Positions 6,201 to 55,596 are shown, counted from the first letter of the whole stretch. The stretch: 62,892 nt of DNA, filler included, from Psammoneis japonica (GCA_008632985.1; 3 parts of 3 records of this genome joined end to end with filler, not necessarily neighbours in it), one strand, 5' to 3'. Notes: generated from the letters alone by a model not told the origin. Made by a program: numbers and translations.

Positions 6201-6225
6201 GCCACGTTTGGATGTGGGGACCCAT

Positions 6226-6622
6226 TGCAGCATGCATGCAGACAAAAGGTCATTTTTGTCACGCCCTTTGTGACATTTAAAGGCTGCAACACGTCGCCGT
6301 GATGCATTGACTCTTGTCAGCAGCTGTGTGTTGCACTCCTCCCCATGTGTCACGCATCCGTGCGGCTCTTTGCCAACGTGCACTGACACTGCACGGTTTT
6401 GGCGGAACAGTGTGGGTACGTGCGAAGGAACGTGCAGAACTGCACAGAGTTTTACGCGTTCGAAAGTGATCAACGTTGCTGCAGACAACTCCCACTCGGG
6501 TTTCGAACCCCTGGCCTCCTGCCCAGTGGTTACGATGTGCCACTCCGCTGTGAATTCACAACGCAGCATGCGTGCAGACAAAAGGTCATTTTTGTCACGC
6601 CCTTTGTGACATTTAAAGGCTG
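6226..6622 (-). mobile_element. tRNA-derived (Pol III A/B-box) element with about 88-bp direct repeats, copy 1, runs into gap
   Basis: Reverse complement of 33442-33869; the minus strand has CAGCGGAGTGG and GGTTCGAAACC; this copy retains several TA sites. Confidence 0.75.
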
Positions 6623-16580: not shown

Positions 16581-16903
16581 TAGAATCGATGTCGACACCG
16601 CTCTTTTACGACGGTCAATGTTAGTTCAATGTGGTGCGTTACAAGAGGTGCAAACCAATCTCGATCGCAATGACCACAAGCGTTAGAGTACTCCGGCTCC
16701 TCCTACCGGTGAGGAAAAGCAAGTGCTTGGTCGGTGTGTGAAAGTAAGAGCGCCAGTATGCAAGCCAGATGTTATCGCCCTTGACCTCAGGCGCGGCAAA
16801 ATTCGACAGTGGGATGTTTATGCATATTTTGATGATGAATTAAGCACGACGACTAAAGCAAATGAAGGCACGTGATACTAACCATTCTCTGCTCTCGAAA
16901 TAT

Positions 16904-18760: not shown

Positions 18761-19169
18761 TATTTGGTTCCACGGTCCTACGGTATGGGGAATGGAGAGT
18801 GCTTGATGAAAATCCTGAATCTATTTGTAGACTGTTTGGGTTGTATCACTTGATTATCTATCGTTTTCTTGATTTGTATTCGTGTTTTGCCTTTCATCTA
18901 GCTGTACGCTTCGCGTTTTCGAGTGCGTTTTGTGAGTGCAAAAATGTCCGATAACCAATAATGACAGTGGGGCAATTGACGGACAAAAAATAACACCAGG
19001 TACACATCATGCTGCAGCGTCATGTGTAAAGGTTCTCCGACTGACTTTAAATAAAAACTAACATTTATATTCGCGTTTTCGAGATTGCTGCTCAGTGTTA
19101 ACTTCTGCACCAAATGACATGGTGGACCGGTGCCGTACGACATCGTAGCCCTGGAGCAGAGGGCCGAAA

Positions 19170-21950: not shown

Positions 21951-22057
21951 CCCTGGAATCAGTACAGTGTGGCATGAAGAGGCAAAGTGAGTCAACCATT
22001 GACTTAAAATCAATTTAACCAAAGAAACTGAAATTTAGCCTCCTTTCAAACCACCAA

Positions 22058-23815: not shown

Positions 23816-24204
23816 ANNNNNNNNNNNNNNNNNNNNNNNNNNNNNNNNNNNNNNNNNNNNTTAATTAATTAANNNNNNNNNNNNNNNNNNNNNNNNNNNN
23901 NNNNNNNNNNNNNNNNGTATGTATGATGTTTGCAGTGTATTACTGTGCCTGTAATCCGACAATCGTGCTGACAGCAACCCAGCTACCAAGCTATCTCGCC
24001 TTCAAGCTTCGAAGCCACTCCATCGCAATCGATTTGCTGTACTGAATCTACATAGGTTTCTACGTGGGATCTTTGATCTCGGAGGGAGTTTTGGGAATTT
24101 CGAAAATCGGTGCACATCGCATCGATACGGTGCGGAAGCACACAGTATGTTGTTGAAGAAATATCCATCGACATCAAAAAAGCTTTCTACAGACAGTATA
24201 TACA

Positions 24205-31946: not shown

Positions 31947-33441
31947 GACAAAGAATTGAGATTGACGCGGTAGGGCCCTCTCTAGCTAGTAGCAGCTAGC
32001 TACTTCTATTCTAGAAGTACAGTGCTGTACTCGAGAGCCGGTAGTGAAAAGTGACGCCATTGCCGCCCGCACGCACTGGCATCAAGCGGGTCCGCGACGG
32101 CCGACGGGGGACACACGCGAATCGATCCTCGCAACGGCGCACTGCGCTGCGCACGCTGCCATGGGTGGGGACGCCGTAGAAATCACGTGGGAGCTGTTTT
32201 TTTAGAAAAATTAACCTCGTTGCCCAAATGGACCATGGCGGTCGTCATCGTCGTGACAAAAAAAAGTGTCATCATCACGATTCGTAAGACTCAACGTGCG
32301 TTCACAACGCGCAAGTCCGAGCTTCCATCTCCCACCACAGCCTTCGCCAAGCGACGACCAAATCAACCTGCTGTTTCTCACCAAATCGCTTTCGCGCCCT
32401 CAGGATCATCACAAAAAGTTGCACTTTTGACACCATCATGTCCGCCGTCATCGAATTGGGTGGGGTGCACTGAAGCACAACTTTTGACTGCAATCTCATC
32501 GAGTGATTTTGAAATGTTTGCGGATGTCCACGCAACTCGTTTGAACAACATGCCGTCATCCAAATGGCACTTTCATGAGGCAGAACTGAGACGCCTGATT
32601 GGAACAAAGTCAAAGGATGGCACCTGTCTGCATGCATGCAAGCAGGAAATCCACTCACTGTGTTGCAAAAGGGACATTTTCACAACATCAGGAAGGGCGC
32701 GCACGGACCACAGGGTCTCCCTTGTTGGATCCACTCCGCACAAAGCACTCAACAGAAGAATTGCTCTAAGACTCATTGCTTCAATCATGGATGCCCAGAG
32801 GGTTTCAAAACGAGTCATCTGCAAGAGGATGTCACTGTCTCAAGAGTGCCAAGATGCTTTGCGATCGGGTGTGACATGGAGAGTGGATGGATGCAACTCT
32901 TCTGATTCAACAGAATGGCAATGACAGGAAGTGCAAGCGACCCCACTTTCATTCCAGAATTTCAACAAAGGCAAGTCTCTGACAGCGCAGTCATTGAAAC
33001 AAATGTTGTGCTCTTTTGTCACTTGTTTGCATCACCTTTTCACAGTTGTGTTTCACAGGCACATGCGAGTGCTGCGGTGGGAACCGATCTTGTCGGCTTG
33101 GCTTTGTGATGCCAAAAGGCATGATTGATTCTCTGTTTGTCGCAGAGACATGTCGCTTCTGCAAAGACACTGAAGAGCCCTTTTCTTTTCTTTCTTTTTG
33201 TTGCAAGCTCGTTGACGACAACAATGTCTTTGTGCACAATCGTTCAGATCGTTGCATTGGCAAATGCATCGCTGTTGCATGGGACAAGAGTTTGCTGTCA
33301 AGGGCACTCCAACCAAACAACAAACCCTGTTGACTGAGGATCAACCACACTTCAAGCCGAAGCCACCGTGTTGCAGGAGTTGAGTCATGCCTTCAGCGGC
33401 ACTTTGTGTTTTGCAGCAGCTGCAATGTGCAGCCACCAATG

Positions 33442-33869
33442 AGAGTCAATGCATCACGGCGACGTGTTGCAGCCTTTAAATGTCACAAAGGGCGTGACAA
33501 AAATGACCTTTTGTCTGCATGCATGCTGCACCATGAATTCACAGCGGAGTGGTTCATCTTGCAACCACTGGGCAGGAGGCCAGGGGTTCGAAACCCTGAG
33601 TGGGAGTTGTCTGCAGCAACGTTGATCACTGTCGAACGCGCAAAACTCTGTGCAGTTCTGCATGTTCCTTCGTGCGCACCCACGCTGTTCCGCCAAAACC
33701 GTGCAGTGTCAGCACACGTTGGTGAAGAGCCGCATGGACGCGTGACACATGGGGAGGAGTGCAACACACAGCTGCCAACAAGAGCCAATGCATCACGGCG
33801 ACGTGTTGCAGCCTTTAAATGTCACAAAGGGCGTGACAAAAATGACCTTTTGTCTGCATGCATGCTGCA
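33442..33869 (+). mobile_element. tRNA-derived (Pol III A/B-box) element with about 88-bp direct repeats, copy 2
   Basis: Direct repeats 33442-33529 and 33781-33869; A-box-like CAGCGGAGTGG at 33542; B-box GGTTCGAAACC at 33585 within a CAGGG/CCCTG T-arm. Confidence 0.78.
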
Positions 33870-34004
33870 CAGCAAACCCAGTGTTCTCATTTGGTGATTG
33901 CAGTGGGAACACGTCTGGCTGTGCCTGCTGTCTTTTGTCGGCAATGTGCGAAACAATGGCAGCACTGACTCTCACCCCTCCCTTGAATGACAGTTTGCCC
34001 ACAG

Positions 34005-34690
34005 TTCACGGAGATTTTGCATGGTGGTGACCTTCTTGATCCGATCGTGTCCAAAGGCAAGAACTCTGAAGCTGAAAGCCGCCGAGTCTTGAGACGGTTT
34101 CTCGGTGCTGTTCAATGTCTTGGCGAGGACCGCCAGGTCCTTCACAGTGAGTTGAAGCCAGAAAACATTCCAATGATCGACTGCAATTCTGACGTGGCAT
34201 TGGCATCAAGCTGACAGACTGTGGAGATTGACCAAAAAGGACTGGGGCCTCCTGAAGACCTTTTGTGGAATGCCACTGTGCTTTGCACCCAAAGTGTTGC
34301 AATGCCATCACACGGTTGCTGGGTGAGGAAGTGTGGAAAAAAGGCTGACATGTTTTTGTTGGGAGTCATTCTCCACATCTGCTGAGCAGCATTCCTCCTT
34401 TTGACGGTGACACTGCTGGAGCCGCCAAAGGTCAAGTGACGTTTGTGCCAGATGCCTTTGCCAATGTTTCGGAGGCGGCCAAGGATTTGGCAATTGGGTG
34501 GCTTCGGCCGGACCCAAAGGACCTGTCAGTGGTGCAAGAAGCGCGTCAGCACGAGTGGATGTCGATCGACAATGGAGATGTGCATGTTCATCCTCTGGAT
34601 GATCCCGTTTTGGCCAACTCCCAAGACGATGAGATTGACACAAAGGGACGGAGGACAATGAAACGACTCGCATCGGTTTGCAAACAGAAG
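34005..34690 (+). pseudogene. Decayed CAMK/Chk2-like Ser/Thr kinase fragment
   Basis: GGDLLDPIVSKG, VLHSELKPENI, IKLTDCG, KTFCGMPLCFAPKVL, GKKADMFLLGVILHI, VSEAAKDL and HEW, with frameshifts and stops. Confidence 0.85.
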
Positions 34691-36711
34691 AGGAATCAGA
34701 AAATGTGGACATTCATGAAACTTTAGAAGAGGACTCCACGGTGACAAGCAGAAGGATGCAAACGCGAGAACAGAGGAGACAACAAGTGAACGTGACGTTG
34801 TGAGAGAGGCGAACTGGATCGTTGCTCCAAGGGTGACGGGGAATTCCAAACATAGAAAAGACAAGCAGAAAGAACAAAAAAGGTGGATTTCTTTACACTT
34901 GTAAAAATGTGACCTCAATTTCACCACGAAAACGGCGTGCATTTGTGCTCAGTTGATTTTTACATGGTGAAGTGCAGCAAAATCGAGAAAAGTGCCATTT
35001 CACGTTCTCTCCAACCACGTGGTCAGGTGACTTGGTAGATGCATTGTAAGAGAGAGAGCTTGCACTTTTGATGTCGGTCACCACTGGCATCTTTAAAGCC
35101 ACAACAACATTCCAAAACTACAAACGAGTCAACGTGTGAAAAACTCGAATTTTTCAGTTGTGATTGCACGGCAAAGTGCGGGAAGTCACTTCATTGCTCT
35201 CAATCTTGACAAATGCAAGGCCAATGAAAAAGTTGCACCCCGTTCCAAGCACCTCTGAACACCCTCTGTCGAACAAGGCAACTCTCGTTTTGATCCGAAA
35301 AAATTCGTTTCTGCATGTTTTCTGTGGCGGCCTCTCCCATGGCTGCACTGTGAATGCAACGCAACGCTTGAAAATGGGCTGGGGCATTTTGCGGCAATCG
35401 TCCAGCCACGCAGGCAGCTCCACAGAAATCGTGCAGGAAATGTGCTGGAGTTTGTGTAGATTCCTGTGACGACACAATTCCATTTCTGTGATGACAAGCA
35501 GAAATGCACGGCATTTCTGGCGCACATTGCATGACGACACGAAACAGGGAATCCTCATGATTCCCTCCATGACCCACGAGCAATGAACCATCAGTGGCTG
35601 CTTCTCCAGAGCAGAGAGAGCTCTCTTCTGGCTGGGTGGAGAGCAGAGAGCTGGCTGTTGCTCTCAAACAGAGAGCAGAGACTCTGCTCTAGAGAATGGA
35701 GAGAGGAGCAGGCAGAGTTCTGCAGCGACTGCCACATTTCTTTCGCACTTGACGCACGCAGAAAAATCGACACTGTTTCCCATTTTACATTTTTGTTGCA
35801 CACACTAGAGCACCGGTGGCTGGGCGACAGGTGACACCACTCGGGACTGGGCGTTTTTGCTCCCACTGTTGGGCCCCAGAGACATGTCAACACCATCGAC
35901 GATGCAAGTGTGATCTTCTTTCTTTCTCACTTGCTTGCTTGCTCTCTCCCCTTTTCCAGAGCAGAAATCGCAAGCAAGACCAATGGTTTCAAGGCTGGTG
36001 CATTTGTGGAATGATGAAAGAAAGTGAGCGGGCACCAAACGGAGGTGGAGTTGCCTGAAGCAAGCACCGGCAGCACCTGGGTTCTTGAAGAGTGCAGCAG
36101 TGGCGGCAAACATGACACGGCATTCATCGGGGTGCCTCTCATTTTGCTCTGATGGAAGGAGTTAGAGCTGCCACTTCTTGCAACAATCTGGGGGCTCCAT
36201 GATCTTCAATCTGCAAAGCACAAACCAAAATTAAAACAAGCAAGTTGTGAGAACCCGAGTCTGAATGCAACAAAATCACAGGAAGGAGCGTTCAGCCAAT
36301 TTTGGATTTTCTCTTGCCTCTCTTTTCATGGACACACTCATCAGAGAAAAACACAACATGTCGCACAATGGCATTTTTGGTGGGAAAGGTTAAGCGGCTA
36401 AACAGAGCATTGGTTGTTGCTGCGCAAGTTGTGAGAATAGAGTCAGACAATGGCAGCAAAATCACAGAAGGATTTCTCATCCATTTTTGGGTTTTCTCTC
36501 ACCTCTCTTTTCATTGACACACTCATCAGACAAAAGATTGGAATCTTGTGCAGTTGCATCTTTTGCAGGAACAGCTTTGTTGAAGAAATTGTGCAGCGGC
36601 TGTTGCTGCCACCATGGTTGCTTTTTGAGATGTGTCAAGTCCTGCCGGGTGGGTGGGCCAGGGACACAAACATCCAGTGAGACGGGATGTGACACGCGGT
36701 GCAAAAAAAAT

Positions 36712-38105
36712 GGGCCCTTTGCATTGATTTTAAGGTTTGTCCACATGTCGGCAGATGAGTGAACATGTGATGTTAAAAATTGACACGGGCGGTCCCTTTG
36801 ACAGGCCAAAAGTGAGGGAATGCTGAGTCTCAAGGCACGCACACCTGACACCAACATGATGCCACATTGCCGTTGTTGCGCTGTTTTCTCCTTCGTGATT
36901 CCGCTGTTGCTCTCCCTCGTGGTCACATGCCGACACATTCATTTCTCTGTTGGCTTGCCACCAGTGAATGAATTTTGCAAATGCCATTTTGCTTCCTCTT
37001 GCTCTTCCATTTTGTTGCTTCTTGTGGTGTGTGAGCATTTGCTGAATGCATCTCGTCGTGTTGCTGCATTTCATTGCATTGGGTGCGTCAAATTTTGCCA
37101 TGCCCCTCATTGTGATCGTCTTCCTTTTTCTCTTTTCAGTGGCTCATTGAAGCTTGTGCGTAAGCAACTCATGTGAAGGTGACTAAATCGACAACGCAAC
37201 TCAGTTCCTTCAGAAATGCCGTGTCGTGAAAAAGCAAATCCGAGCGACTTTCAGTTTCTGTCACAGGAGCAGCACTCACAACATGCATCGGCTCCAAAGC
37301 AAGAGGGTTTGCATCTGGCGACTCTTTCATTTGTTGCCACACCCCACACAGCGCATTTCTAATTTTTTGGCTCCATTTCTTCTCCTTGGGCTTGGCATCC
37401 CGCGTCTGTGGCAAATGGCAGTTTCCGTCTGCAGGCACTTAGATTGGCAATGGTGACAACATGTTGCACATCTGGCACCTCTTTGTTGCAGTGCCCCATC
37501 TGACATTTTGGCTCCATTTCTTCACCAAAGCAAGTTGTCCTTTGTTGAAGAAGTGATCTTCCGTGCAGCCACATTTTTCCAATGCGGAGCCCTCGAATGC
37601 TGGAGAAGAGACCTCGACATCAGACTGATTGGGGTGCAGTGCTGGCATGAACTTGGGTCCATTGTGAAGATTCAAAACCGCTCTTGCATGGGAAAAGGAC
37701 AAAATTTAATTCCAATGTCATGGGCTCTGCCATTTCTCATCCTTCTTGCTGTGCCAGAGGTTGTTTCGAGCTGCTTTGCACTCGTGAGCTGTGCAGCTCC
37801 ACACTTCCGTCCAAATTTTTACCTTGCTCTTCAAGGACGCTCTTGAACAGACTCAGCAGTTCTCCACAGATGCAGGTTAAATGATCAGACATGGTCAATG
37901 CAGTTGGTTGGGCAAGAAGTGCTTGTCTTTTCTCTTGCACGATGTGCGCTTGTGTTGGCGCCGCCGCGTCTGGCGCGTGTTGTTTGATTTTTTGTTTTCC
38001 CTCACTTTTGGCCTGTCAAAGGGATTGCCCGTGTCAATTTTTAACATTTGATTTTTGTTTGTGTGCGCATGTTGGATGAACCTTAAAATCAACGCGAAGG
38101 GCACA
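36712..38105. mobile_element. About 1.4-kb non-autonomous DNA transposon with about 110-bp TIRs
   Basis: 36712-36820 is the reverse complement of 37997-38105 (shared TGTTAAAAATTGACACGGGC and CCCTTTGACAGGCCAAAAGTGAGGGAA); no clear TSD or transposase. Confidence 0.8.
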
Positions 38106-40504
38106 AGATCCCTGTGGCCGCCATGTGGGCATGTGCACATCGCATCTGACTGGACATTTGTGTCCCTGAGGCAGGCCTGCAGCTCGACATTCTTCTGGTC
38201 GTCGCATGCGCGCTTTGAGCTTGCAGCCTCTCTCTCTCCCCCTCCTCCTTTTCCTCTTCCTTTTTTCACAAACTTGGAGCCACCTGCGTGACCGGACACA
38301 TGCCCATTTTACTTTTTCGTCTCCACTTTGCCATGACAATGCAGATCCTTGAGTGCCCAAGTTGCTGGGCTGCATTTCAAGTTTTTTGGATCATGAAAAA
38401 TTTGGACATGGTTTGGATTTCTGGCACTGGTTGGTTTCTTGCCCTCTCCCAGCCAGCTGACAAAAAGAAAAACTCTCCAAAACACGGGGGGAGGGGACGC
38501 ATCCCGCCCTTTGGTTGGTTTGCAGCCAACAATGCAGGAAGCAGAGCAGCCCCTGATGCACTGAAGGACAAAGCTCAGAAGCATGTCTCATGTTGCATGT
38601 CTGATGACATGGAGAGAGCTGGCCAAGTTCAAAGCAGCCTTGGCCAACTTTGAGCCTTTTTCATCAGAGGGAGGCACCCAAGGTTTGCCCCCAGAGCTGA
38701 CCCCAAGCATTGGGCAGCAAATGTTGAGACCAAAAGCTCTTCCACACACAAGCAACATCACTGCCCTCACCTTCATGTGACTTCAACAGCTTTTCAGTTC
38801 ATCAGCAGCACGGCTTCTCACTCCTCAGACCCTCTGTTCTTTTGGATGCAAAAAAGCCTCAGACCATGGGTCAGCTTGTGTGTGGCATGTGCACGGCACA
38901 ATGAGCCAAGCCCAAGCAATGTGGTCCCCTGTGCTTTGCTGTCTGACCAGCAAGAATCTCATTGTGCAAGCACAGCTGGAAAGTTTGTGCAATGTCAGTC
39001 TTTTTTTGAACAGCCCTCCATTCAGATGTTGTGCACGCGGGGGTCATTTGGGAGTCTTGGAACTTCAAAAAGTGCTGGAAGCTTCTCCCTGGGTCCTTTT
39101 CCTTTGCAGAGCTTGTGCTGGATGGAGTCAACACACACTCAAAATTTGATTCAAAAATCAATCCAACAGTTGTGAACAACCATCCAATTGTCTCATCTTG
39201 CTTCTGCAACATTCCTTTTCCAATCAGACTCTTAGCTTGGCATGCCTTTTCACCACCGTTGCTGCCAATGCTGGCAAAATGCATCCCGCTCCAGTGCGTC
39301 TGCAACAAGTCAATTGAGCCAGCTGTCACAAGCCACCATTTTTGTTTCCCAAGAACAGCAAATTGCTCGTCAGTTGTCCATTTCTGCTGCCAAGAAAGAT
39401 GAGGCAGCAAATCCCAGCACTGGCTTTAATGCAGATGACAGCCCACCCAGTTTCCCACCTGTGGAAGACCTGGAGCTTTTTCCTGCACCCGACAAAGAAG
39501 CAGAGGAGGAGGATGAACGTGACAACAACTCCTCTTGTTTTGCGCAAAATGTTCCCCAGCACTCTTGCTGCTGTGTCTTTGTCCTCTCCTTGGCATGAGA
39601 CATCTGAAGAATCCACCCTGCCCCTGGATCCACCCACTGTCCCTCCCATCACTGCTGACTCGGACCCCTTGCACTGGGGCGCACCTGATCCACCAACCTT
39701 TTCACTTGCGGAGGAAGCTTTGCCAGAGCTGATCATGCCACGTGACAATTCCGGTGCCACTTGTCAATTTTGCAGTTGGCTCTTGCTCACCCTGTTGCAA
39801 CAATTTTGCAAGAAGCGGAAACTTGATTGTTCCTGGTGTTTTGGGTGGGACTTGTTGGTGAAGAAACTCTGCAAGAAGGTTTTCCTGCCCCAGCCCAACA
39901 CTCGCATCATTGGTGATCAGGAAGTCACTTGCTTCTGCATGCTGGACATGCATGTTGAGAGATTTGTGCCTGCTTGATGTTTGACAAGGAGCAAAATCTC
40001 AACGTGAACAAGTCCATCCAGGCACATTTCCGCAAATTCATTCCTGTTGACTGGACGCTTCTCAACAGGAACAACTGAAGAAAGCTGGAATGTCCCTCCC
40101 ATGTTCTTGAATTGCTCAAGAAGTGAAAACTTTGTCTCCCATTGATTTTCCAATGAGTGCCCCACACAACTCCAGCCTCCTCAAGTCATTCTTCTCTGAC
40201 AATGTCAAGCTCACTGACCTCACATTTTTTTGTTGCTTGGACAACCATGATCCAAGGGCAAAGCCATCCTTGACACATCCAAAAGGAACATCACAATTGC
40301 CTTCCCTCCCTGAGTGAGCTGAGAGCACATTGCAAGCACGACTCCATCTGCCCTGGTTTGCACTCCACTCAACACCAGCCATTGCTGCACTGCAAACCTT
40401 GGGCAGCTGGTGCATTGTGAGAGAATGCTCCAGTGGCTGGCAGAGTCAAAAGGTTGCCCAGCAGTTCACTGGCTCATTCTTTTGCAATGAACGTTGACAC
40501 AAGA

Positions 40505-41720
40505 TGATGCCAAGATGCAGCATCGCTCCTTGCAAAAGACACTCAATGCTGTGTCTTGTAGCGGACTCTGCTTTTTGGCAAAAGGTTGTGAGCAGGGATT
40601 CAGTGTGGGGGCTGTGCACTCCCAAAGAATGACGGAGCTGCTCCAACCTTGAACTCATCACAAAGACCTGGCGTGCGGACCCAAGGTTGATGTGCAAGAG
40701 GCAAAAGTGGCCCTCAAGGAAATGGTCCAGGCTCAAAGTCAAGGAAGCTCTCTGTGGAACATGGGCATGGGACAGAACATCATGAACGCAAGGTCACACA
40801 GGGATGTTGGAAACATGCATGGACCATTTGAATGCAACGAACCCAGGCATTGGCAGACTTGTGCATGGGCTTCAGCTCAAGGACAATCGTGCCTCTGGTC
40901 TGGAGTGGGGGTCAACAACCTGCAACAACTGCAGCTTTTGACATTTTTTGTTGCAGCGCGATTCTGCAATGTCTCAAGAATTGCGTGGGGCAGGCACTTT
41001 TAAAAAAAGGTTGAGCAGCAAGAGGCACAATTGCACCACAAACTTGGCCATTTGCTTGATGTTGAAGACAAACATGTCCACCAATTAATTTCTTGCACTG
41101 CGGAGCTCACACGCAGAATTCTGTGGGCCCAATGTCGCGTGAAGTCCCGCCTGGGGCTGGAGAACGCATCTGCCAAGATGCGTTGTCACTCCTTGCAAAA
41201 GATGCTCAATGCTTGCACTGCGGAGCTCACACACAGAATTCTTTGGGCCCAATGTCGCACGAAGTCCCGCCTGGGGCTGGAGAACGCGTCTGCCAAGATG
41301 CGTTGTCACTCCTTGCAAAAGATGCTCAATGCTGTGTCTTGCAGTGGACTCTCTGCTTTTTGGCAAAGGGTTGTGAGCAGGGATTCAGTGTGGGCTGTGC
41401 ACTCCCAAAAAATGATGGAACTGCTCCAACCTTGAACTCATCACAAAGACCTGGTGCATGCAGACCCAAGGTTGATGTGCAAGAGGCAAAAATGGTGCTC
41501 AATCAAGGAAATGGTCCAGGCTCAAAGTCAAGGAAGCTCCTCTCTGTGGAACGTGGGCATGGGACAGAACATCATGAACGCAAGGTCGCACAGGGATGTT
41601 GGAAACACGCGCGGACCATTTGAGTGCAATGAACCCAAGCATTGGCAGACTTGCGCGTGGGTTTCAGCTCAAGGATGAGCACGCCTCTAGTCTAGAGTGG
41701 GGGTCAACAACCTGCAGTCA
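40505..41720. repeat. Direct duplication (about 40505-40920 and 41291-41720) around a truncated MITE-A fragment with a 120-bp internal duplication
   Basis: Matching ORF text KEMVQAQSQGSS..WN.GMGQNIMNARSHRDVGN in both arms; CTGGGGCTGGAGAACGC at about 41151 and 41271. Confidence 0.8.
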
Positions 41721-41784
41721 GCGGTGTTGACAAAATCATCTTGCAGACTGACAAGAGCATGCGCCCCCTTCAGCACAACAGCAT

Positions 41785-42402
41785 GTTGTCTTCAACTTTG
41801 ACTGTTGGACAGTGTGGTCTCCTGTTGAGTCTCTTGCAGTGACTGGCGGAGCCAAAGATCTGAATCCAACAAAGCAGCAGCAACACCCACGATGCCAAAG
41901 AACACTGTCCAGCTGCAAAGAGCAAACACGCATGCTTTGTTTCAAAGTGGCTGTTTTCATTTTCAAGAACAGAAACACCACGGGACCAAGATGTCTTCAA
42001 CTTTGACTGTTGGACAGTGTGGTCTCCTGTTGAGTCTCTTGCAGCAATTGGTGGAACCGAAGATCTGAATCTGACAAAACAGCAGCAACACCCACGACGC
42101 CAAAGAACATTGTCCAACTGCAAAGAGCAAACATGCATGCTTTGTTTCAAAGTGACTTTTTTCATTTTCAAGAACAGAAACACCGTGGGACCAAGATGTC
42201 TTCAACTTTGACTGTTGGACAGTGTGGTCTCCTGTTGAGTCTCTTGCAGTGATTGGCAGAACCAAAGATCTGAATCTGACAAAACAGCAGCAACACCCAC
42301 GACGCCAAAGAACGTTGTCCAGCTGCAAAGAGCAAACATGCACGCTTTGTTTCAAAGTGACTGTCTTCATTTTCAAGAACAGAAACACCATGGGACCAAG
42401 AT
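41785..42402. repeat. 205-bp tandem repeat, 3 copies
   Basis: TTCAACTTTGACTGTTGGACAGTGTGGTCTCC at 41791, 41996 and 42201. Confidence 0.92.
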
Positions 42403-43052
42403 GACCCCCAATTGCAGAGACTGCTTTTTAGTGAAAACAATGCCGAGACCCAGCAGCTGCTCTTTTTGGCCATTCTCCAACTTTCCTGCCTTGTCCCAAG
42501 CTTGCTTTTGATTGTTCAACCAAGCTCCAAGTCTCTTTCCAATGTCAACGTGAGGATGAGGCACTTTTCAATTTCCCTCGTGCACCGCAAATTGTCCAAG
42601 ATGAGAAAACACAATCTCCCGTTGATTTTCCAACAAGTCTCACTCCATTCCAGCCTTCTTCAGTCGTTTCTGTCAAGAGGCGTCCAGCTTGCCCTTCCTT
42701 TTGGCTGTCCTTCACTTGACTGGCCAACTTCCAAGGTTCTCCCCATTCCCCATCCTCTTTGTGATGCCTTGGCAGGTTGCAATGGTGTCCCTCCCATTTC
42801 TTGAATTGCTTCAGAAGAGAGAACATTGTGCCCCATTGATTTTCCAACATGCCCCACTCAACTCCAGCCTCCTTGAGTTTTTCTTCTTTAAAGTGTCAAG
42901 CTTGCCAAGCTTGTGCTCTCGTCATCATTGGTCATCCAACCAAATTCCAAGGGCAAAGCCATCCTCAATGCATTTGTTGGGAACATTGCAATTGCCTTCT
43001 CTCTCCAAGCAAACAAGAGTGGGCTGCAAGCACGACTTCATTTGTCATCGCA

Positions 43053-43442
43053 GACGCGTTCCAGCTCTAGGTGGGACCTCGCACTGCTGAACTGTGACAT
43101 CGATAGTTTTTTGGATCGCACCGTATGTCGCGCACGTAGAAAGGTACGTGACTTTTGTGAAATTTTGTATCATTTTGTGGTGCACTTATTGAGCGATCCG
43201 TCCAACAACTTTTGACATTTATTTCTTCTACGCCATTCTTAAATGTCTTAAGAATGGCGTAGGGCAGGCGCATTTGCAAAAACGTCAAGTGGCAATGGTC
43301 ATAATTGCACCACAAACTTGGTCGTTCATTTGATGTTGAAGACAAAAATGTCCATCAATTAGATTCTCGTAATGCGGAGCTCGCACGTAGAATTCTACGG
43401 GCCCGATGTCACAAAAAGTCCCACCCAGGACTGGAACCCGTC
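43053..43442 (+). mobile_element. MITE family A, young copy (390 bp, TSD CGCA)
   Basis: TIR GACGCGTTCCAG..GGTGGGAC / GTCCCACC..CTGGAACCCGTC; CGCA at 43049-43052 and 43443-43446; removing it restores the host frame WSVCDDK. Confidence 0.92.
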
Positions 43443-44558
43443 CGCACACGCTCCACATGACACCAGCCTTTTTGAGCTTTTGTTTGAGAGAAATGTCCAG
43501 CACCCCACTCTTTTTGGCCTGTCTTTGTCTGTTCAGCCAATTCCCCAAGTTCACCCCTCCATCAAGAACGTGGCCATGACAAATGTCGCAACTCCCTTTG
43601 TGGTCTGCAGTGCAAGAGCAAACCACATGTGCGATCCCAGGAACTCTTGTCCTTGCATTCTCTGACTGCCCCACCCACATGATGACATCCCTCATTTCAA
43701 AAGACACCAAATCAGGAAGCACAAAGGAATCGAGGACACGAGGAGGGAACTCTTCACCCTTCAAAGGCCTGTGTTTGGGCAAAATGCATTTCGATGGACT
43801 GGCGGCATCGGAGTTGTTTTCATTCAGGGCTGGAACACACGTGTCAGGGTGTGCAACTGGGCCAGCCAAGCCGTCGTGTGTGAGTTGTTGAAGGGCAAGG
43901 TTTGGAGTTGGCTCCAGCAGATGCCATCTCACTTCACAATTTTGGCCAGTCCTTTCATTCTTTAAAACAGAAACACCACCAAGAACCAGCAGATTCCTGC
44001 ATTGCAGAGACTGCTTTCTAGCAAAAACAGCGCCAAGATCCAGCAGTTGACTCTTCTGGCTGTTCTTCAGTTTTCCAGCCTTCCATGCTTGCTTTTGATC
44101 TTTCAACTAAAGCTCGAGTCTCGCTCCATTTTCAATGTGATGAAAAGGCACTTTGCAGCTGCCTTCGCACACCACAAACTGCTCGAGAAGAGAAAACACA
44201 GTCTCCCACTGCTCAGCCCAAATGCCCCACTTAACTCCAGCCTTCTCCAATCGTTCCTGTCTAGAAGCACTCAGTTTCCCTTTCCTTTTGTCTGTCTGTT
44301 GCCTGTTCAGCCACACTCCAAGATTCACCCCATCCTCTTTGTGACCCTGCAGCACCCTGCAATGGCCCTCACACACCACAAACTGTTTGAGAAGAGAAAA
44401 CACAGTCTCCCATCTCTCAGCACAAATGTCCCACTCAACTCCAGCCTGCTCCAGTTGTTTCTGTCAAGAAGCGCGCAGTTTCCCTTTCCTTTCATTTTTC
44501 CTTTGCATGCCCAACCATCTTCCAAGGTTCTCCCCATCCTCTTTGTGACCCTGCAGCA

Positions 44559-44954
44559 GACGCGTTCCAGACGCAGGTGGGAATCCGTGTGACATTGGGC
44601 CCGTAGACTTCTACGTGCGAGCTCCGTAGTAAAATTATACGGTAATTAAAATGTCAATGATCGCCAACAGAAAATGAGGCAATTTTGCGAACGCACAAAC
44701 TCGCACATGATTGAAGTACATCATTTTTTACTCAGCCAGTTACATTCTTCAGACATTGAAGAATGTAACTGGCGCATTATTGTTTCTATAAATTTGTTAT
44801 ATAAAACGTCTGGGGCTTCGCAAAACAGCGAGTCTGGACAATTTTTTTTAAATGTCACACGTAGAAATCTACGTACGAAACATACGACGGATGATAAAAA
44901 TTATTGTTGTCACACGTCAGCACTACGAGCTCCAACCTAGGGCTGGAACGCGTC
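44559..44954 (+). mobile_element. MITE family B, young copy (396 bp, TSD AGCA)
   Basis: Perfect 12-bp termini GACGCGTTCCAG / CTGGAACGCGTC; AGCA at 44555-44558 and 44955-44958; the empty site matches the paralogous HA unit at 44341-44370. Confidence 0.93.
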
Positions 44955-47103
44955 AGCACCCCACAATGGCCCTCATGTGCCGCAAATTGTTCAAGACAAG
45001 AAAACACAGTCTCCCATTGATTTGCCCACAAGCCCCACTCATCTCCAGCCTCCTTGATTTTTTTCTTTGTCAATGTCAAGCTTGCCAAGCTTGTGTTTTT
45101 GCCATTGGTTGTCCAACCAAATTCCAAGGGCAAAGCCATTCTCAGCGCATTTCTTGGGAACACTGCAGTTGCCCCCTCTCTCCAAGCAACCAAGAGCATG
45201 CTGCAAGCACGACTCCATTTGTCATCGTTCACACTCCACTCAACTCCTGCCTTCTTGAGCACTTGTTGACAAAAAACATCCAGCACCCCACTCTTTTTGG
45301 CCCACTGTTGTCTGCCCAACCAATGCTCCAAATTCACCCCCTCCTCTTTGTGGCCATGGCGAACTTTGCAACTCCCTTCGCAGTCTCCATGCACCAAGAG
45401 CAAATCGTTCATGCAATCCCAGGAACTCTTGTCTTTGCATTCTCTGATTGCCCCACGCATGATGCCATTTGTCGTTTCCAATGGCATCGAAACGGGAAGT
45501 GTGAAGGAATCGAGAACACAAGGAGGGTGCTCGCATTCCTCCAAAGGCCTTCCCAATCTGTTGCTCTCTTCAATCACAAACAAGACATCCTCGCACAATT
45601 TGGGATCTGGACCAACCATGGCCTCAAAAGCAAGAGCAAAACTTTCACGTCCATTGACATCCTCAGACAATGATTCTTTGTCAGAAGAAGCTGGAGCAGG
45701 AACAAGAACACAACCACAGTTTTTGTCACAGTCCCTTTCTGGCTCACACATCCAATCATTTGACATGCAAGGACTGAACTCCGAATGGGATCAGCCATCA
45801 CAGCCAACTCTCAATCTGCCTTGTCAACACCTGCAGCCAGTGATTTGCAGTTTGCAATGACAGATTTGGGTGCAGACTTTGCTCTCAACAAAACCTTTTC
45901 CCATTTTGCAACAGACATTTTTGGGCTGCCGCTGACAGGAAATGTGGCAATGTCATCCTTCAAAAGGAGTCAAGAGGAGTCTGCAAACGCCTGTGCCTGG
46001 GAATTTGCAGAGTGAGGCGAGACTGCATGACTCACATTGAGTTTGTGAAAAGCTGCTTGAATGGCAAAAGGCACCAGGGGACACATTGAAAGATTGTTTG
46101 AATCGACGGGCGTGCAGTCACAGATTTTGCCTCAATCTGGAACGCACAGCATGACAGGAACCACAATGTTGCACTCCGCACTTTCCTGCAGCATCTTCCT
46201 CTTGATGCGCGGCCCAAACAATGGCTCATCATTGAAGCTCCAAACAGCTGCAGCTTTGTGAGCCGCAGCATTGTCACCCCTTTTTGGCAACAGAGTTTGT
46301 GCTCCAAACTTGTCAAGCTTGGATCCCAACACGGCAACTTGCTTTGGAGATTTGGTGCATCAACGAGGGGTGGCCGCAAGAAAAAGTCGACAGTCAATGG
46401 GAAGGACGCCATTGCAGGGACCGCAACCAAACAAATTGCCAGCACCTTCCATCTCGTGTGCTTCATCAAAGATGCCAAACCTGATGCTGCCACCCAGCTT
46501 GTTTGAAGCCTTGCCAACCTTGGGCAACAAGTTGCATGTGCAGCTGACAAACTGCAACTTGTCATCATTGGAAGAAAGAAATGCTGCAATCTCATCGACA
46601 GATGTTGTGCATGCCTCGGATTGACTGGCTTGGCTCGCCACAATCAATCTCAAGTGAGGCACATTGTCAAATGCTCTGGATGAATCCAAGACTCCCAGCA
46701 TCTGATCCACAAGTGCAAGCTTTGGTGTTGCATGAGTTGCCGCTTGCACCCCTTTGAGTCACAATCTTGCAAGCGTTTTGAGGCTCAGCAATGTTTTGCC
46801 CCATTCCGGGGGAAGCTGAACATTGGCTTGGCAATGTTTCTTGTCTTCAGATGATTTCAGCATGCCAACCACACCTCCATTTGAATTGCTCCCTCTCCCT
46901 GCGGAGGATTTGTTGTCCTCTCCACAGCAGTGACTTGCAAGAGAGTCAATGACATCATTGTGTTGACCACCGCAATCTTGACAGCAGCAGCTTTCTTGAT
47001 TTTCTGCATGTGACGCTTTGATCTCTGAAGAACCTGTTTTTGTTCTTTGATCAATCTTGCTGGCAACAGTTCTGTGATCTTGTTGCAGATGCTCAATCCC
47101 AGA

Positions 47104-48174
47104 GACGCACTCCAGGTGCAGGTGGCAATCCGTGTGACATTGGGCCCGCAGAATTCTGCTTGCAAGCTCCGCAGTGAAATCATCAGGCAAGTGACACGTC
47201 AATGATCGCCAACAGAAAATGATGCAATTTTGCAAATGCACAAACTCGTCTGTGGTTGAAGCACATCATTTTCTGCTTGGCCAGTTGCGCTCTTCAGACA
47301 TTGAAGAATGCACCTGGCTTGTTTGTGTTCCCATGATTTCATCAAATGAGATGTCAGGGGATGCGTTCCAGGTCTGGGTGGGACCTCGCGCCACTGAACT
47401 GTGACATCGACAGTTTTTTGAATCTCATCGTATGTCGCGCATGCAGAATTCTATGTGATTTTTTGACATTTTGTGTCATTTTACGGCACACTTGTTGAGC
47501 GCTCCGTCCAAAAACTTTTGACATTTTTTGTTGCAGCGCGATTCTACAATGTCTTGAGAATCGCGCAGGGCAGGTGCATTTGCAAAAACGTCGAGTGGCA
47601 AGAGGCACAATTGCACCACAAACTCAGCAGTTCATTTGATGTTGAAGACAAACACATCCATCAATTAAATTCTTGCACTGCGGAGCTCGCACGCAGAATT
47701 CCACGGGCCCAATGTCACACGGAGTCCCACCTGGGGCTGGAACGCGTGTCAGGGGTTTCGCAAAACAGCGAGTCTGGAACAATTTTTTGAAATGTCACAT
47801 GTGGAAATGTGCACACAAAACATGCAACGGATGACAAAAAACAACTGTGTCACACGTCAGTGCTGCGAGCTCCCACCGACGGGTTCCAGTCCCAGGCGGG
47901 GCTTTTTTTGTGACATTTGCCCCGCAGAATTCCACGTGCGAGCTCTGCAGCTCGCACTCTGGTCAACAGATGTGCTCATCTTTGACACAAAACAAACGGC
48001 CAAGTTTGTTGCACACACATCTCTGTTCGTACTTGCAGTTTTGGACAGTGCGCCTGCCCTGCGCCATTCTCGAGTGTCTCGAGAATGGCGCAGAAGAAAA
48101 AAATGTCAAAAGTTGTTGAATGGATCGCCTGACAATTGCGCTGCAAAATGATGCAAAATTTCACCAAATTCATG
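47104..48174. mobile_element. Nested MITE cluster: old B copy (47104-47359 plus 47751-47877) with A copies at 47360-47750 and 47878 to the gap (reverse)
   Basis: Colinear with the 44559 and 43053 copies; AGGG flanks both sides of the 47360 insertion. Confidence 0.85.
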
Positions 48175-48274
48175 NNNNNNNNNNNNNNNNNNNNNNNNNN
48201 NNNNNNNNNNNNNNNNNNTTAATTAATTAANNNNNNNNNNNNNNNNNNNNNNNNNNNNNNNNNNNNNNNNNNNN

Positions 48275-49906
48275 GGCAGTCTCCCTCTCGGCCGATGGAG
48301 CAGGAGTGAACGAGACGGTCGTAGTCACTGGAGTCGAACTCAAAGAGTCGTCCACAGGTGCACACCACATGCCGCAATAAACCAGCTCGTTAGGGTCAGA
48401 GGGTTCGTCTGTAGGCGGAGACGTCGTCTGCTCGGGAGGACCAAAAGGAATGCCCGAAGAGGGGTCCGACACAGCAGATAAATTTGCCGCAGCGGTGGTT
48501 TCGGTGTTGACAGACGGTTTCCCGGTGTGTTGAGCGGAGGAGTGGCCTTGACACATGCCCTTCTTGCCCGTTTCCTTGTTCACACACTTGTCGCACCAGT
48601 GCCAGGTCGTGCCTTTCTCGTCGGTGACAGTGGCACCTTTGTGAACGAAACGCCAGGCCGGCTTGGGTGGTTTCTTGGAAGGGTCAGTCTTCCGGACATC
48701 CGGAGGGTCATCCTTGGACTTGTCCGCCGTGCCCTTTTTGTCCTTCTTGCATTGCTCCTTGCAGGTGGGACACGTGCGTTTGGTGTGCCCAACCTTGCCA
48801 CAGCCGCAGCAATGCTTTTCCGAGTTGTCCTTGGCGAGGTTGGATTCCGGGAGCTTGGCTGCTAAGGCAGGCCAATCTTCATCGCTAATGAGTTCGCCAT
48901 GGGTCTTGGTGATCCAGCCAATGAGGCCAACAGGTCCAAGATCCGCACAGTCGGCATCCTTGGGGACTTCTGCCGGGTCACGCAAGCGACATTTGCGCTC
49001 CAAGCGCTTGACGGAGTCGAGCTTGGCAAAAACTTGACGATTGAAAAACTCGGAGGATGTCTTTGACACCTTAGATAAAACAGCAGACCCAGTTTCAACT
49101 GGCAACGCACAGTCCGTCTGCATGATCTTGAGCAGGCGCAGAGCTTCGGTTGCAAGCTCGGTGCAGTCTTCGCCAGGGCAGTTGTCCAGAGTTAAGTCGT
49201 TCAACTTTTCCTTGGCGGCCTTGACGTCAACCAGAGCACTGGCGTTGCAGGTGTCCAGAGCCATCATAAATGAGACAGACCCCGGAAGATCCTTGCAGTT
49301 CTTCAAGTGATTAAACTTGGTTTCAATCTTTTCACGGAAGGTTTCGGTGATGCGCGACTTGACGATGAGTTGTGACAAGCCGATGTCATCGATTTCATGC
49401 TGATCGTAGCCTTCGTCACCTGCAGCCGCCACACGGGTCTCACATTCCTTCTCAAGGTCTTTGACAGTGAAGGCGTGAAGATGATCAAAAAGGTGCACGA
49501 CCTTGCCGTCGACTTTCTTGAGATGGTAGAAAGTTTCTTGTCCGTGCGACTCGATTGAGTCCTGAATGGTCTTGACGAAGTGGTCTTTGTCCAGTTCAGC
49601 ACTGGAACCGTTGGACAACTCAATCTGGCCGTTGAACTTGGATGTGGTTGCCGAAGCGAGTTGATCTCTGAGAGATCGCTCGACAGAGTCGACAGCTTTC
49701 GGATGGCGACGTTGCGAGGCAAAACGGCAGGTGCGGGTGTCGGTCTGCTCGCACTTGTTGTTCAGAGCCGAACCACCCAGATGCACTCCATGAGAGTGGT
49801 GGATGCCGCCGCGAAGCGGCGTGGGGATCGTAGGAGGGTTGGTCGAGGTTTGCATCTTGGCGAAGGCCTCAGCAAACATCTTGACGGTGTCAGGATCCAT
49901 GGACAT
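48275..49906 (-). mobile_element. Ty1/Copia-type (diatom CoDi-like) gag ORF, truncated by gap
   Basis: CCHC knuckle CCGCGKVGHTKRTC; second motif WHWCDKC...HSSAQH; upstream LTR/PBS-like region. pol is not visible, so the superfamily is inferred. Confidence 0.75.
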
Positions 49907-50071
49907 GGTTGTGGATGATTCGACACAGAGGATCGATTAGCAGGTGGGGATTGCGACATAGATGATCGCCGTTGGATTGCGACATAGAAGATCGCCGTTG
50001 GATGGGATGTCGTCTGTAACGAGACGAACGAGTGGCAGCAACTCCGTTGCGAGTTGATGCCGGTGCGTGGA

Positions 50072-50241
50072 TTGGGGTCGTAACCACTTGGGATACAACA
50101 ATGCACTGTGTAGGATGGAGAGTTCAGGACTCTCTTGAGGTTGTACAATACAACAGAGGATGACAAGAAGTGGTTTTGGGACAATGAGATGCGCCAAAGA
50201 TGCGAATTGTGAGAAGATCTCACGAGGGATTGGAGATGACA
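50072..50241 (-). mobile_element. Putative 5' LTR (50241-50089, TG...CA) and PBS (GGTTACGACCCCAA)
   Basis: Minus strand TGTCATCTCC...TATCCCA, then AGT GGTTACGACCCCAA, resembling copia-type GGTTATGGGCCC primer sites; the second LTR is lost in the gap. Confidence 0.45.
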
Positions 50242-50412
50242 TTATGACCTAACGGTCGTGTGTGTCACTCCGATTACTATCGCTAGAAGACTCAACGGAC
50301 ATTTCTTCCGGAAGAAGAGATCCATGACCGGAGCGTCATCCGTGAATCAGACTCGGTTGTTGACTCGTGACTCGAAAGTGAGGAGGCTCAGAAAAAGGAA
50401 GCCGAGGACCGT

Positions 50413-52051
50413 TTGAAAAAGATACCCAAGAAGAAGCTGGCGTCGCAGACAGCCTATTCCTATTTTGCCGCCCCCCTGTTGGATGAGAATGGAAATAAGG
50501 TTGATTATTTTCCCGCCACCTTCAAGTGTGGCCATGCTGTGGACCCTGAAACGAAGCAAGTCTACTTTGCACACGGTGGAGTGCGCAAGTGGACCTTGGC
50601 CAATGACAGCCCCATCGACCAAGAGCGAGCCAAGCTTCACATCTTCAAGGCTGTTGTTTCTGCGGAAAATAAGGAGCTCCTTAGCACTTTGAAAGAGTTC
50701 CATGCAAAGAAGTCCAAGAACAAGGGCAAGCTTTCCCCCACAGCCGAGACGGCTTTGTCAAAGTTCTTTTACTCTGTGATTTCGAAACAATTTGGTATGT
50801 AAACTTTTGTGACACAAGTGTCATCCTTTTTTGTATGCTGAGACATTTGCCACATTACTGACACGTTTGCCATTGTTTGGTGCAGATGTCGGAAAGAAGA
50901 TGACGCACACTTGGAACCTGAACAAACTGCTGGACGCTCTGATGGCGTACTCCAATGTTTTTGGCAAAGGCACCGGCCGGCCTAATCTTTCCACCCATGC
51001 CGCCTGTTTGGACCGGCACGAAGAGATGATTAGAATGATGTTGAACACTACGACAGGACATCAGGCGAGTCTTGATGAGCAGGCAATGCTCTTGCAGGCC
51101 CTTGACGATCGTGCCGATGCACAGGATAAAAAAATCGCTGAGATTCTGAGTCGTCTTGATTTGGATTTCTTGGAGTCAACGGTCGACGAGCTTGGGGCTC
51201 GTTTGAAAATCCTCGAGAGCAAGCGGGACACTCCCGTCACAGTGGAGGGCAAGAAGGATGTTGACAAGGAAGCTCCCGCCGCAGTGGAACCGGATCCGGA
51301 CCCGACTGCCAATGAACTTGGTGCGTTGTTGGATGCAGGCATCCCAGACGACGAGTATCGCCAGTATTTGCAACACTCAGCAGCAGCTGCTGCTGATGAA
51401 ACACTTCTTGTTGCCCCATTTGTATGCGCGAAAGACCTTGCCACCTTGAAAGCCGGAGAATATCTCAACGACATCATCATTGCTGATTTTTTCCGTCTGC
51501 TGTCCATGCGTGCAAAAAAGCACGGTGCCGAGGTTCCCAAGAAATGCCACTTCGTCAACTCATACTTTTTGCCAAAGCTTGTAGAGGACGGGTCCGTCAA
51601 GAACATCAAAGTGCGTCGTCAACTGAAGAAACTGCCGGGCAAGGGGGTGTTTGAATATGACCGCCTGTTGGTCCCAATCAACAAAAGCAATGTCCACTGG
51701 GCTCTGTTGGTTGTTGATTTCGAAGCTCACGTAGTCGCAGGGTACGATTCGTGCGGATGTCCATGCAAGTCGTACGCCAAGAAGTTGTTGGAGTTCCTCG
51801 AGCAGGAACATCGTCTCCAGCACAATGACGAGAAACTCCCGTCCGACTGGTCTATTGTAGAGAGTCGTGACATCCCCAAGCAGCACAATGGATTTGATTG
51901 CGGTGTATTCGTCTGCATGTATGCCTACTTTTTGTCGTTGGGGTATGATGTCCGCGAAGGACACTTTGACCAGGACAAGATTCTAGGTGCGTCCGGGAAC
52001 TTTGGCCGTGCCAAGATTTGTTCCACCATCCTTCAGGGGCAGGTGGAATAG
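50413..52051 (+). CDS. Ulp1/SENP-like C48 cysteine protease; intron 50795-50885; 5' end uncertain
   Basis: EYLNDIII, VNSYF, LLVPINKSNVHWAL, GYDS and PKQHNGFDCGVFVC (His-Asp-Cys triad plus Gln); the phase-1 GT-AG intron joins ORFs 50413 and 50831 in frame. Confidence 0.88.
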
Positions 52052-54650: not shown

Positions 54651-55596
54651 ATTCCAGCGATGCTCCTTTTCACTTTGTCATCGGCTGGAGTTTTCTGTAC
54701 GGTACATACAGTACGGGTACGTCCCTGTTCAAAAAAATTTCAAATTCCTCGAGATCCTTCGACTACGAAGTATCGCTTGTGCCCTGTATAAGATCTTGTC
54801 ATCCAACGATCAGTTTCAGCAGGAGTCTCACCATACTGAAGACAATGATTGAAATATCTTCGACATGTCGAAGGATCGTGGGTGTCCCGAGGAAGATAGA
54901 GATCGCTTGCTTGCTTACACAGGTTGGAGAGCTGGGTTTTCGCGCCAGTTCCGACTTTGACAATGTCTGAACGCAATCCGATTAGAATAAACGAATAGCC
55001 TGTTGAAAACCACGGCGATTGTAACGCCGAACCGTTGGGTCAATCTGATAGTGTTTCTTTGCTGATTTCCCTAAGCCATAGTCCGTTCTGATTACTCTTT
55101 CACTGAGTAGATGATTTCCGCGACAAAATATGCCCTCGGTAGGTTGCTGAATATTATTTGCAGCCCATTGTTTTCAACAATATCAAGTACACGGCGTTAT
55201 TCGAGACACAAAAGGCGATTGTTAGACAGCGGGTAACGTTTGGGGAAAGAGGTATTTGGTACAAACAAACAACCTTTCTCGATTTCACAGGAACAAAACA
55301 ACGTTTTGCGCGTCAATTTTCGCCAATTCTCGTTAGTAGTACGAACGTTATTCGCTCTTTCGCGTTATAGCCTTATCAAGCCTGTATGTCTCTAGGCGTG
55401 GCTTGGTGGATGAAAAAAGAGACGCAGACTGTTGCATAGCGACGATGTTGTTCTGAAAAAAAAAAAAAAAAAAANNNNNNNNNNNNNNNNNNNNNNNNNN
55501 NNNNNNNNNNNNNNNNNNNNNNNNNNNNNNNNNNNNNNNNNNNNNNNNNNNNNNNNNNNNNNNNNNNNNNNNNNNNNNNNNNNNNNNNNNNNNNNN

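Follow-up and report, generated by a model that had tools for sequence, protein, structure and literature searches.

The window analysed here, a stretch of 62,892 nucleotides (filler included) from the diatom Psammoneis japonica (GCA_008632985.1), contains the gag open reading frame (ORF) of a Ty1/Copia retrotransposon, presumably of the CoDi-like type. This ORF has probably been struck by a process almost confined to the conversion of TpA to TpG or CpA. The affiliation of the element, the pattern of Tyr replacement by Cys or His, the specificity for TpA, the order in which TpA and CpG were lost and the context preference are all documented below. The same process, followed by CpG loss, would have stripped older repeat blocks of the window of both dinucleotides and doubled their CpA and TpG. 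Its preferred target would be R-T-A (R, purine; Y, pyrimidine), and the gag copy would have been hit mainly on the sense strand of its internal region. By analogy with the proposal made for Bigelowiella natans, the process may be a host defence in which an adenine deaminase acts on DNA in place.

48275..49906, minus strand: gag-region ORF of the Ty1/Copia element, with ATG at 49906 and 544 codons, open up to the contig end
48175-48274: scaffold join composed of 44 N, TTAATTAATTAA and 44 N, which removes the rest of the element (protease, integrase, reverse transcriptase and 3' long terminal repeat, LTR)

Tyrosine and arginine codons in the gag frame

Of all amino acids, Tyr alone has an in-frame TpA in every one of its codons. 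Because of this, T:A to C:G transitions at TpA, yielding TpG or CpA, would convert Tyr to Cys (A to G on the sense strand) or to His (T to C on the sense strand). Read in frame, TAY would become TGY or CAY, NTA would become NTG or NCA, and NNT-ANN would become NNT-GNN or NNC-ANN. No TpA conversion makes an in-frame stop codon, and existing TAA and TAG stops are removed by it; conserved Tyr residues can therefore be lost from a copy that nevertheless stays open.

The minus-strand frame from 49906 to 48275 has no stop across 544 codons and ends at 48275 because the scaffold ends there in an N-gap. Given the dinucleotide content of the ORF itself, the analytically estimated probability of such an open frame is 2.9e-7; the remaining five frames contain 8-29 stops each, mostly TGA. 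The GC content of the ORF is 0.55. The ratio of observed to expected (O/E) TpA is 0.18 (15 TpA per 1632 nt), that of CpG is 0.89, and that of ApA is 1.29, i.e. ApA is not depleted. The 544 residues include 21 Cys, 20 His and only 3 Tyr, the latter at positions 127 (TFYH), 167 (EGYD) and 510 (LVYC). These counts bear out the initial annotation, which had described about 540 codons without a stop, abundant CpG and just these three Tyr. At the mean Tyr content of homologues, approximately 21 Tyr would be expected, and the probability of finding three or fewer is 1.8e-6.

A sequence search with the gag ORF retrieved 25 homologues, 17 of similar length and 8 longer, with 31-47% identity. Their Tyr share is 2.8-5.5%, versus 0.6% in the gag ORF. 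Two alignments were used: A2, with 26 sequences (the window protein and the 25 homologues), where a Tyr column is one in which half or more of the homologues have Tyr; and A1, with 18 sequences, where Tyr-majority columns were counted by cells. At the 17 Tyr columns of A2, the window protein has Cys at eight (residues 52, 60, 243, 266, 306, 320, 367, and 452; all TGY codons), His at two (residues 39 and 170; CAT codons), Tyr at two (residues 127 and 167) and other residues at five. Among A2 columns conserved at 90% or more, Tyr was kept at 1 of 8 and other residues at 105 of 126 (Fisher p = 6e-5). Six of these eight most conserved Tyr have become Cys, one has become Phe and one is retained; replacement by Phe was seen just once among the Tyr columns. 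The Tyr replacements are products of single transitions inside TA, not conservative choices. Changes at other residues in A2 (I to V, M to V, T to A etc.) showed no clear excess over their reverses.

The homologues do not share the Cys and His residues, although such sharing would have counted against the initial annotation by its own terms. In the Tyr-majority columns of A1, 199 of the 227 homologue cells are Tyr and 3 are Cys or His, and the window protein has 7 Cys, 2 His and 2 Tyr at 16 columns. The ancestral state of these positions would thus be Tyr, as judged from family conservation at 31-47% identity. Two of the sites at which the initial annotation had suspected a lost Tyr stand: LDNCPGED (residue 243; Tyr in 23 of 24 homologues) and TDCALP (residue 266; Tyr in 25 of 25). 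WHWC (residue 436) does not belong here, as its column is not Tyr-majority and the closest relative has Lys. The CCGC of the zinc knuckle (residue 367) is ambiguous, since Tyr occurs in just 13 of 24 homologues; the alternative in the homologues inspected is Phe.

Arg codons tell how CpG has fared in the same frame. Eighteen of the 20 are still CGN, and a single CpG-type change (R to Q) was detected at 13 conserved Arg columns of A2, versus Cys or His at 9 of 16 Tyr columns defined by the same threshold. CpG loss is therefore far from equal to TpA loss (O/E 0.89 vs 0.18; 1/13 Arg vs 9/16 Tyr columns), an equality that the initial annotation had named as evidence against its own interpretation.

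A baseline was provided by 16 related gag loci (L001-L016) from metagenome contigs. All 16 have TpA O/E of 0.47-0.82, Tyr contents of 2.2-5.0% and GC contents of 0.36-0.47, so that the TpA loss is specific to the window copy or its host. Ten of these loci (within L006-L016), from other hosts, combine CpG O/E of 0.20-0.44 with normal TpA, which is classical CpG decay without TpA loss. Also, the matched span in these ten contains 2-17 stops when read in a single frame. Since these relatives lost CpG and kept TpA, and the gag ORF displays the reverse, the two processes are separable in both directions.

Affiliation of the element

The Pfam scan of the gag ORF revealed no significant family, and the affiliation follows from its homologues. 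RVT_2 (PF07727) was present in six of the eight longer ones. The best relative is P0019, a 2084-aa Copia polyprotein with 47% identity and 95% coverage of the query, whose residues 45-556 align to residues 26-544 of the gag ORF with no frameshift. The domain order in the two scanned relatives, P0019 and P0023, is Pol_BBD, gag_pre-integrs, SH3_retrovirus, RVT_2. These domains represent protease, integrase and reverse transcriptase, and the order is therefore that of Ty1/Copia. A zinc knuckle, CX2CX4HX4C, is located at gag residues 366-379 and aligns with the knuckle of the homologues. By sequence comparison, 48275..49906 is confirmed as the gag region of a Ty1/Copia element. The label CoDi-like would apply by diatom host and Copia type. 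As regards the host, all 12 organism-named relatives among the 120 listed for the neighbouring gene TRM11 are diatoms (53-63% identity).

Upstream of gag, the following parts of the element were recognized:

49907..50073, minus strand: 5' untranslated leader between the primer-binding site (PBS) and the ATG
50086-50074, minus strand: PBS, TGGTTACGACCCC, 13 nt, conserved in relatives
50089..50400, minus strand: 3' end of the 5' LTR, which ends ...CCCA; position 50400 is not an established LTR boundary

The sequence ...CCCA and a 2-nt spacer directly precede the PBS, giving an LTR that ends in CA followed by the PBS. The family PBS consensus, TGGTTATGAGCCC, or a close variant of it was present in 11 of the 12 relatives having upstream DNA, 65-360 nt ahead of the gag match. 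The window PBS agrees with this consensus at 11 of 13 positions and differs at 2. The consensus appears complementary to the stem-loop that carries the anticodon CAT (loop CTCATAA) in a tRNA-Met-like molecule, which suggests priming by an internal part of tRNA-Met. Priming of this kind is used by Drosophila copia. No tRNA genes were found within the window. The leader contains a 26-nt tandem duplication at 49948-50003 (2.2 copies, 96% match).

No further copy of the gag ORF or LTR and no pol sequence was found in the window: blastn and tblastn of the region gave the self-hit only, and tblastn with the 25 homologues matched the gag ORF alone.

Depleted blocks and sequence context in the window

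The TTAATTAATTAA linker with 44 N on either side occurs at 23817-23916 as well as at 48175-48274, and the window therefore consists of three scaffolds placed end to end. The neighbourhood across these two joins is not real. Further gaps are located at 6623-6847 and 55475-55596.

1-8000, 12001-16000, 19001-22000 and 32001-48174: repeat blocks with hardly any TpA and little CpG, approximately half of the window

These blocks have TpA O/E of 0.0-0.15, CpG O/E of 0.1-0.6 and CpA/TpG O/E of 1.5-2.1, values that match the footprint of TpA hypermutation. They adjoin ordinary genes with TpA O/E of 0.5-0.8 and CpG O/E of 0.8-1.2, and have repeat families in common across all three scaffolds. The composition of the window was surveyed bin by bin (62 bins of 1 kb). 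CpG O/E is below 0.4 in 17 bins, and every one of these has TpA below 0.15 too. TpA is equally low in another 8 bins, whose CpG is at least 0.4, and the remaining 37, with TpA of at least 0.15, include not a single bin with CpG below 0.4. Taken as a time series, the blocks would show TpA being lost ahead of CpG. Together with the CpG-poor, TpA-normal relatives described above, these bins agree with the earlier proposal that TpA conversion is faster than, and separable from, CpG decay.

Differences between repeat copies are dominated by transitions, with transition to transversion counts of 26:2, 21:3, 33:3, and 30:5. A pair of host sulfatase genes shows an ordinary spectrum (157:154).

8581-10795 (+) and 16798-18981 (-): a pair of inverted sulfatase genes with 83% identity, which flank the depleted block at 12-16 kb
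43288-45790, minus strand: repeated ORFs with helicase-associated (HA) domains, in a block with TpA O/E of 0.27-0.43

The latter block keeps TA and CG where its partners have TG or CA and therefore serves as a less-mutated reference copy. Its repeat partners lie at about 5.4, 41, and 47-48 kb. In five repeat pairs, TA in the 43-45 kb block faces TG in the partner in 24 cells and CA in 25 cells, and the reverse occurs in 3; these are cells and not events, as the same sites recur across several pairs. At the DNA level, then, the direction is loss of TA, with both products in equal numbers.

The TpA-poor stretches (e.g. 422-1505, 12519-16625, and 38654-47265) contain many overlapping ORFs of 150-340 aa on both strands and in several frames, which have 0 Tyr and 5-10% Cys and His. 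These ORFs are by-products and not genes, because TAA and TAG have been lost. The Pfam scan covered 64 of the 70 window ORFs of at least 150 aa; the others were the gag ORF, which was scanned apart, and five overlapping alternative-frame ORFs. In the depleted blocks it recognized two weak HA-domain matches only, the other matches being host genes. ORFs of a second block that might be taken as mid-process (32-37 kb) resemble non-coding translations.

Context preferences were derived from a pool of seven old blocks, excluding 43001-45000, the gag ORF and 49907-52000, with four normal stretches as the control. Surviving TpA in the old blocks are Y-TA-R in 77 of 140 cases (55%) and R-TA-Y in 13 (9%); the corresponding numbers for the normal stretches are 195 (18%) and 346 (32%) of 1087 (chi-square 105, p = 1e-22). 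The overrepresentation of Y-TA-R among the survivors identifies R-T-A on either strand as the fast target.

In the gag ORF, sense-strand R-T-A accounts for 0 of 15 surviving TpA, compared to 220 of 512 in eight relatives (p = 3e-4), and it makes up 224 of 412 TpA in host genes. All 20 TpA between 48323 and 50082 are Y-T-A on the sense strand. T-A-Y, the antisense form of R-T-A, is still present at 9 of the 15 sites in the ORF. The numbers expected from the 16 relatives and those observed are as follows: R-TA-Y, 22 and 0; R-TA-R, 16 and 0; Y-TA-Y, 31 and 9; Y-TA-R, 15 and 6. The difference between R-TA-R and Y-TA-Y (0 vs 9 sites) has p = 0.033. This one-sided loss of R-T-A, together with the 8 Cys and 2 His at Tyr columns, suggests that the gag copy was affected mainly by A to G on the sense strand.

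The leader and the PBS hold five TpA (four of them in the leader), all Y-T-A on the sense strand. Chance gives such a run about 6 times in 100, and the edge of the mutated zone is therefore placed between 49832 and 50095. The first R-T-A upstream of gag is located at 50095, 9 nt from the PBS. In the 5' LTR end (50089-50400), 6 of 9 TpA are R-T-A on the sense strand; this end of the LTR is not hypermutated. Beyond it lies an ORF in the divergent orientation:

50813-52048 (+), with 50371-50802 (+): Ulp1/C48 peptidase ORF, 412 aa (domain E = 2e-21), divergent from the Copia element

The peptidase ORF has a normal Tyr content (12/412) and many R-TA-Y, and is thus untouched by the TpA process.

Explanations for the TpA loss and comparison with known systems

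The one-sided pattern in gag would also follow if the copy had been born dead, i.e. if its sense RNA had undergone A to I hyper-editing at U-A, either ahead of reverse transcription or in its course, and had then been integrated as edited cDNA. The TpA loss would in this case be a single burst linked to retrotransposition, which is silent on the relative rates of TpA and CpG change in situ. The 8 Tyr to Cys versus 2 Tyr to His, the loss of R-T-A on the sense strand only with survival of T-A-Y, and the intact CpG and frame, as predicted for a recent one-step event, would all fit. However, the 5' LTR end, copied from the same RNA, retains R-T-A, and Tyr to His requires the opposite strand. The window repeats, moreover, diverged after duplication in equal measure towards both products (TA to TG, 24; TA to CA, 25), and their balanced CA/TG double mismatches fit in-place action on both DNA strands. 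In B. natans also, according to the available text of the preprint, the changes occur in place, in a transcriptionally silent single-copy insert (10.64898/2026.01.13.699255). We regard the RNA-level origin as unlikely.

Two further explanations are far less probable. One is that an active Copia family evolved TpA-poor coding under TpA-targeted mutation, with the Cys and His tolerated or compensated and the protein working. We consider this very improbable, since six of the eight most conserved Tyr are now Cys inside motifs otherwise kept across the 25 homologues; selected avoidance should favour Phe, seen once; and the same TpA loss affects non-coding and unrecognizable repeats of the window. 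The 544 open codons without a frameshift relative to the 2084-aa polyprotein and the intact zinc knuckle would be expected of such a lineage, as would the normal appearance of the LTR end and PBS region, although the PBS departs from the family consensus at two of its 13 positions. The other explanation, that low Tyr and TpA reflect general TpA avoidance by the host or chance, is scarcely credible. Host genes of the window are moderately TpA-poor (O/E 0.5-0.7), but their Tyr counts are normal (e.g. 28/638, 19/383, and 12/498) and more than half of their TpA are R-T-A (224/412); the gag ORF values lie outside those of all 16 relatives, and the Tyr deficit has the probability of 1.8e-6 given above.

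Several points weigh against a TpA-specific process acting on the gag copy in place. The process is known here from sequence alone, its enzyme, its timing and its action on DNA or RNA being inferred, and the nearest protein is 47% identical, so that ancestral Tyr comes from family conservation rather than from comparison with a sister copy. At five Tyr columns the residues are L, L, K, V, and F, which single TpA transitions do not account for. The baseline relatives are more AT-rich, and the expected TpA counts are therefore overestimates. The open frame is weaker evidence of youth than usual, since TpA loss by itself removes TAA and TAG, two of the three stops. The strand asymmetry is based on small numbers (0 vs 9 sites; 8 Cys vs 2 His). 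In every repeat pair with at least five CA/TG double mismatches, these are balanced in orientation (all p >= 0.23); the older pairs thus lack an orientation bias, and the one-strand pattern is not replicated outside the gag copy. Finally, the 5' LTR end keeps R-T-A, while an in-place process acting on the whole element would be expected to strike the LTR too. Transcription could possibly be linked to the sparing of the LTR; other possible readings are a length threshold or an event at the RNA level combined with a recombinant LTR.

As a tentative extension, for which we see a real but somewhat less than even chance, diatoms may run an active DNA hypermutation defence that is R-T-A-specific and converts A:T to G:C. 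It would act strand by strand on the internal (transcribed) region of new retrotransposon insertions, before methylation-driven CpG decay and without making stops. If so, a system resembling repeat-induced point mutation (RIP), of opposite polarity, would be shared by, or have arisen twice in, stramenopiles and rhizarians; the many TA-less and CG-less tracts of such genomes would be a fossil record of hypermutation defence; and the gag copy would be a rare early snapshot of the sequence and strand rules of the enzyme. These rules (R-T-A before Y-T-A, one strand first, LTR spared, TpA loss ahead of CpG loss) would be usable for screening candidate enzymes and for mutation-accumulation designs in culturable diatoms. 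TpA conversion would also account for much diatom repeat DNA escaping homology searches. For annotation, it is a warning that long false ORFs arise in all frames of TpA-poor DNA, where the TpA-containing stops TAA and TAG, two of the three, become rare.

The literature searches revealed no description of TpA conversion in diatom transposons. RIP in ascomycete fungi resembles the process described here in its dinucleotide-specific transitions in repeats and transposons, its sharp limits at single-copy genes and the resulting repeats unrecognizable to similarity searches. RIP converts CpA to TpA, thereby generating TpA and stop codons and lowering GC. The polarity in the window is the opposite, with loss of TpA and of stop codons and a gain in GC. 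Fungal RIP was accordingly rejected as an explanation, given the depleted TpA, the enriched CpA/TpG and an ORF GC content of 0.55 versus 0.36-0.47 in the relatives.

Deaminase hypermutation by APOBEC3 or ADAR is likewise strand-biased, clustered and limited to transitions, and can leave a copy open but defective; a further resemblance is the preference of ADAR for a 5' U. APOBEC3 acts on minus-strand cDNA and gives G to A, and ADAR acts on double-stranded RNA. ADARs are metazoan enzymes that also edit A after A. In contrast, the changes in the window are A:T to G:C, ApA is not depleted (O/E 1.29), and both strands are eventually struck.

The CpG decay of methylated transposons yields the same end products (TpG and CpA) in the same kind of target, and it is present in the older window blocks and in 10 of the 16 relatives from other hosts. 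The gag ORF differs in that its CpG is nearly intact (O/E 0.89; 18 of 20 Arg codons CGN) and its TpA is mostly gone. Diatom LTR elements are CpG-methylated, as stated in the available text of Maumus et al. (2009; PMC2806351). That text, which deals with diatom Copia elements, does not contain the words 'dinucleotide', 'TpA', 'RIP' or 'deamination'.

The nearest known parallel is the chlorarachniophyte B. natans (Mettrop et al., bioRxiv 10.64898/2026.01.13.699255), in which TpA-targeted hypermutation affects integrated DNA of nucleocytoplasmic large DNA viruses (NCLDV) and virophages; targeted TpA hypermutation is so far known from this one report, from one alga and on integrated viruses. Mutation-accumulation lines of this alga yielded 231 mutations in two integrated viral regions, and all but one of them (230) were A to G or T to C. 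Every one of the 230 fell on TpA, the rate being about 6e-7 per site and generation, and the de novo conversion of TpA to TpG or CpA was confined to integrated viral DNA (10.64898/2026.01.13.699255). The same text reports that TpA-poor, CpA+TpG-rich coding sequences of B. natans are enriched in reverse transcriptase (RT) and DDE domains, and proposes an ADAT2-like deaminase as the candidate agent (10.64898/2026.01.13.699255). The window itself contains no gene of this type. The words 'CpG', 'trinucleotide', 'context' and 'diatom' are absent from it, supplements aside.

The two cases share the change of TpA to TpG or CpA, the AT to GC bias, the restriction to foreign or selfish DNA and, on the preprint's account, the long-term depletion of TpA with gain of CpA+TpG, the clustering in 1-kb windows and the RT- and DDE-enriched TpA-poor coding sequences. 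They differ in the host, which is a diatom (stramenopile) here and a rhizarian there, and in the target, which comprises an LTR retrotransposon and old repeats here and, as described in the preprint, giant-virus inserts there. The depletion is far deeper in the window (TpA O/E of 0.02-0.1, versus Rho of 0.45 given for the NCLDV region of B. natans), and later CpG loss is coupled to it in time. The preference for R-T-A, the one-strand pattern in a fresh copy and the untouched LTR end are seen here. The evidence from B. natans, as the preprint text presents it, is experimental, whereas ours is read from the sequence. Occurrence of the same signature in diatom retrotransposons would suggest a widespread genome defence in marine protists. 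Relative to the preprint, the window adds a new host lineage, a new target class, depletion to a much greater depth, the R-T-A rule, the timing of TpA loss with respect to CpG loss and an early state confined to one strand.

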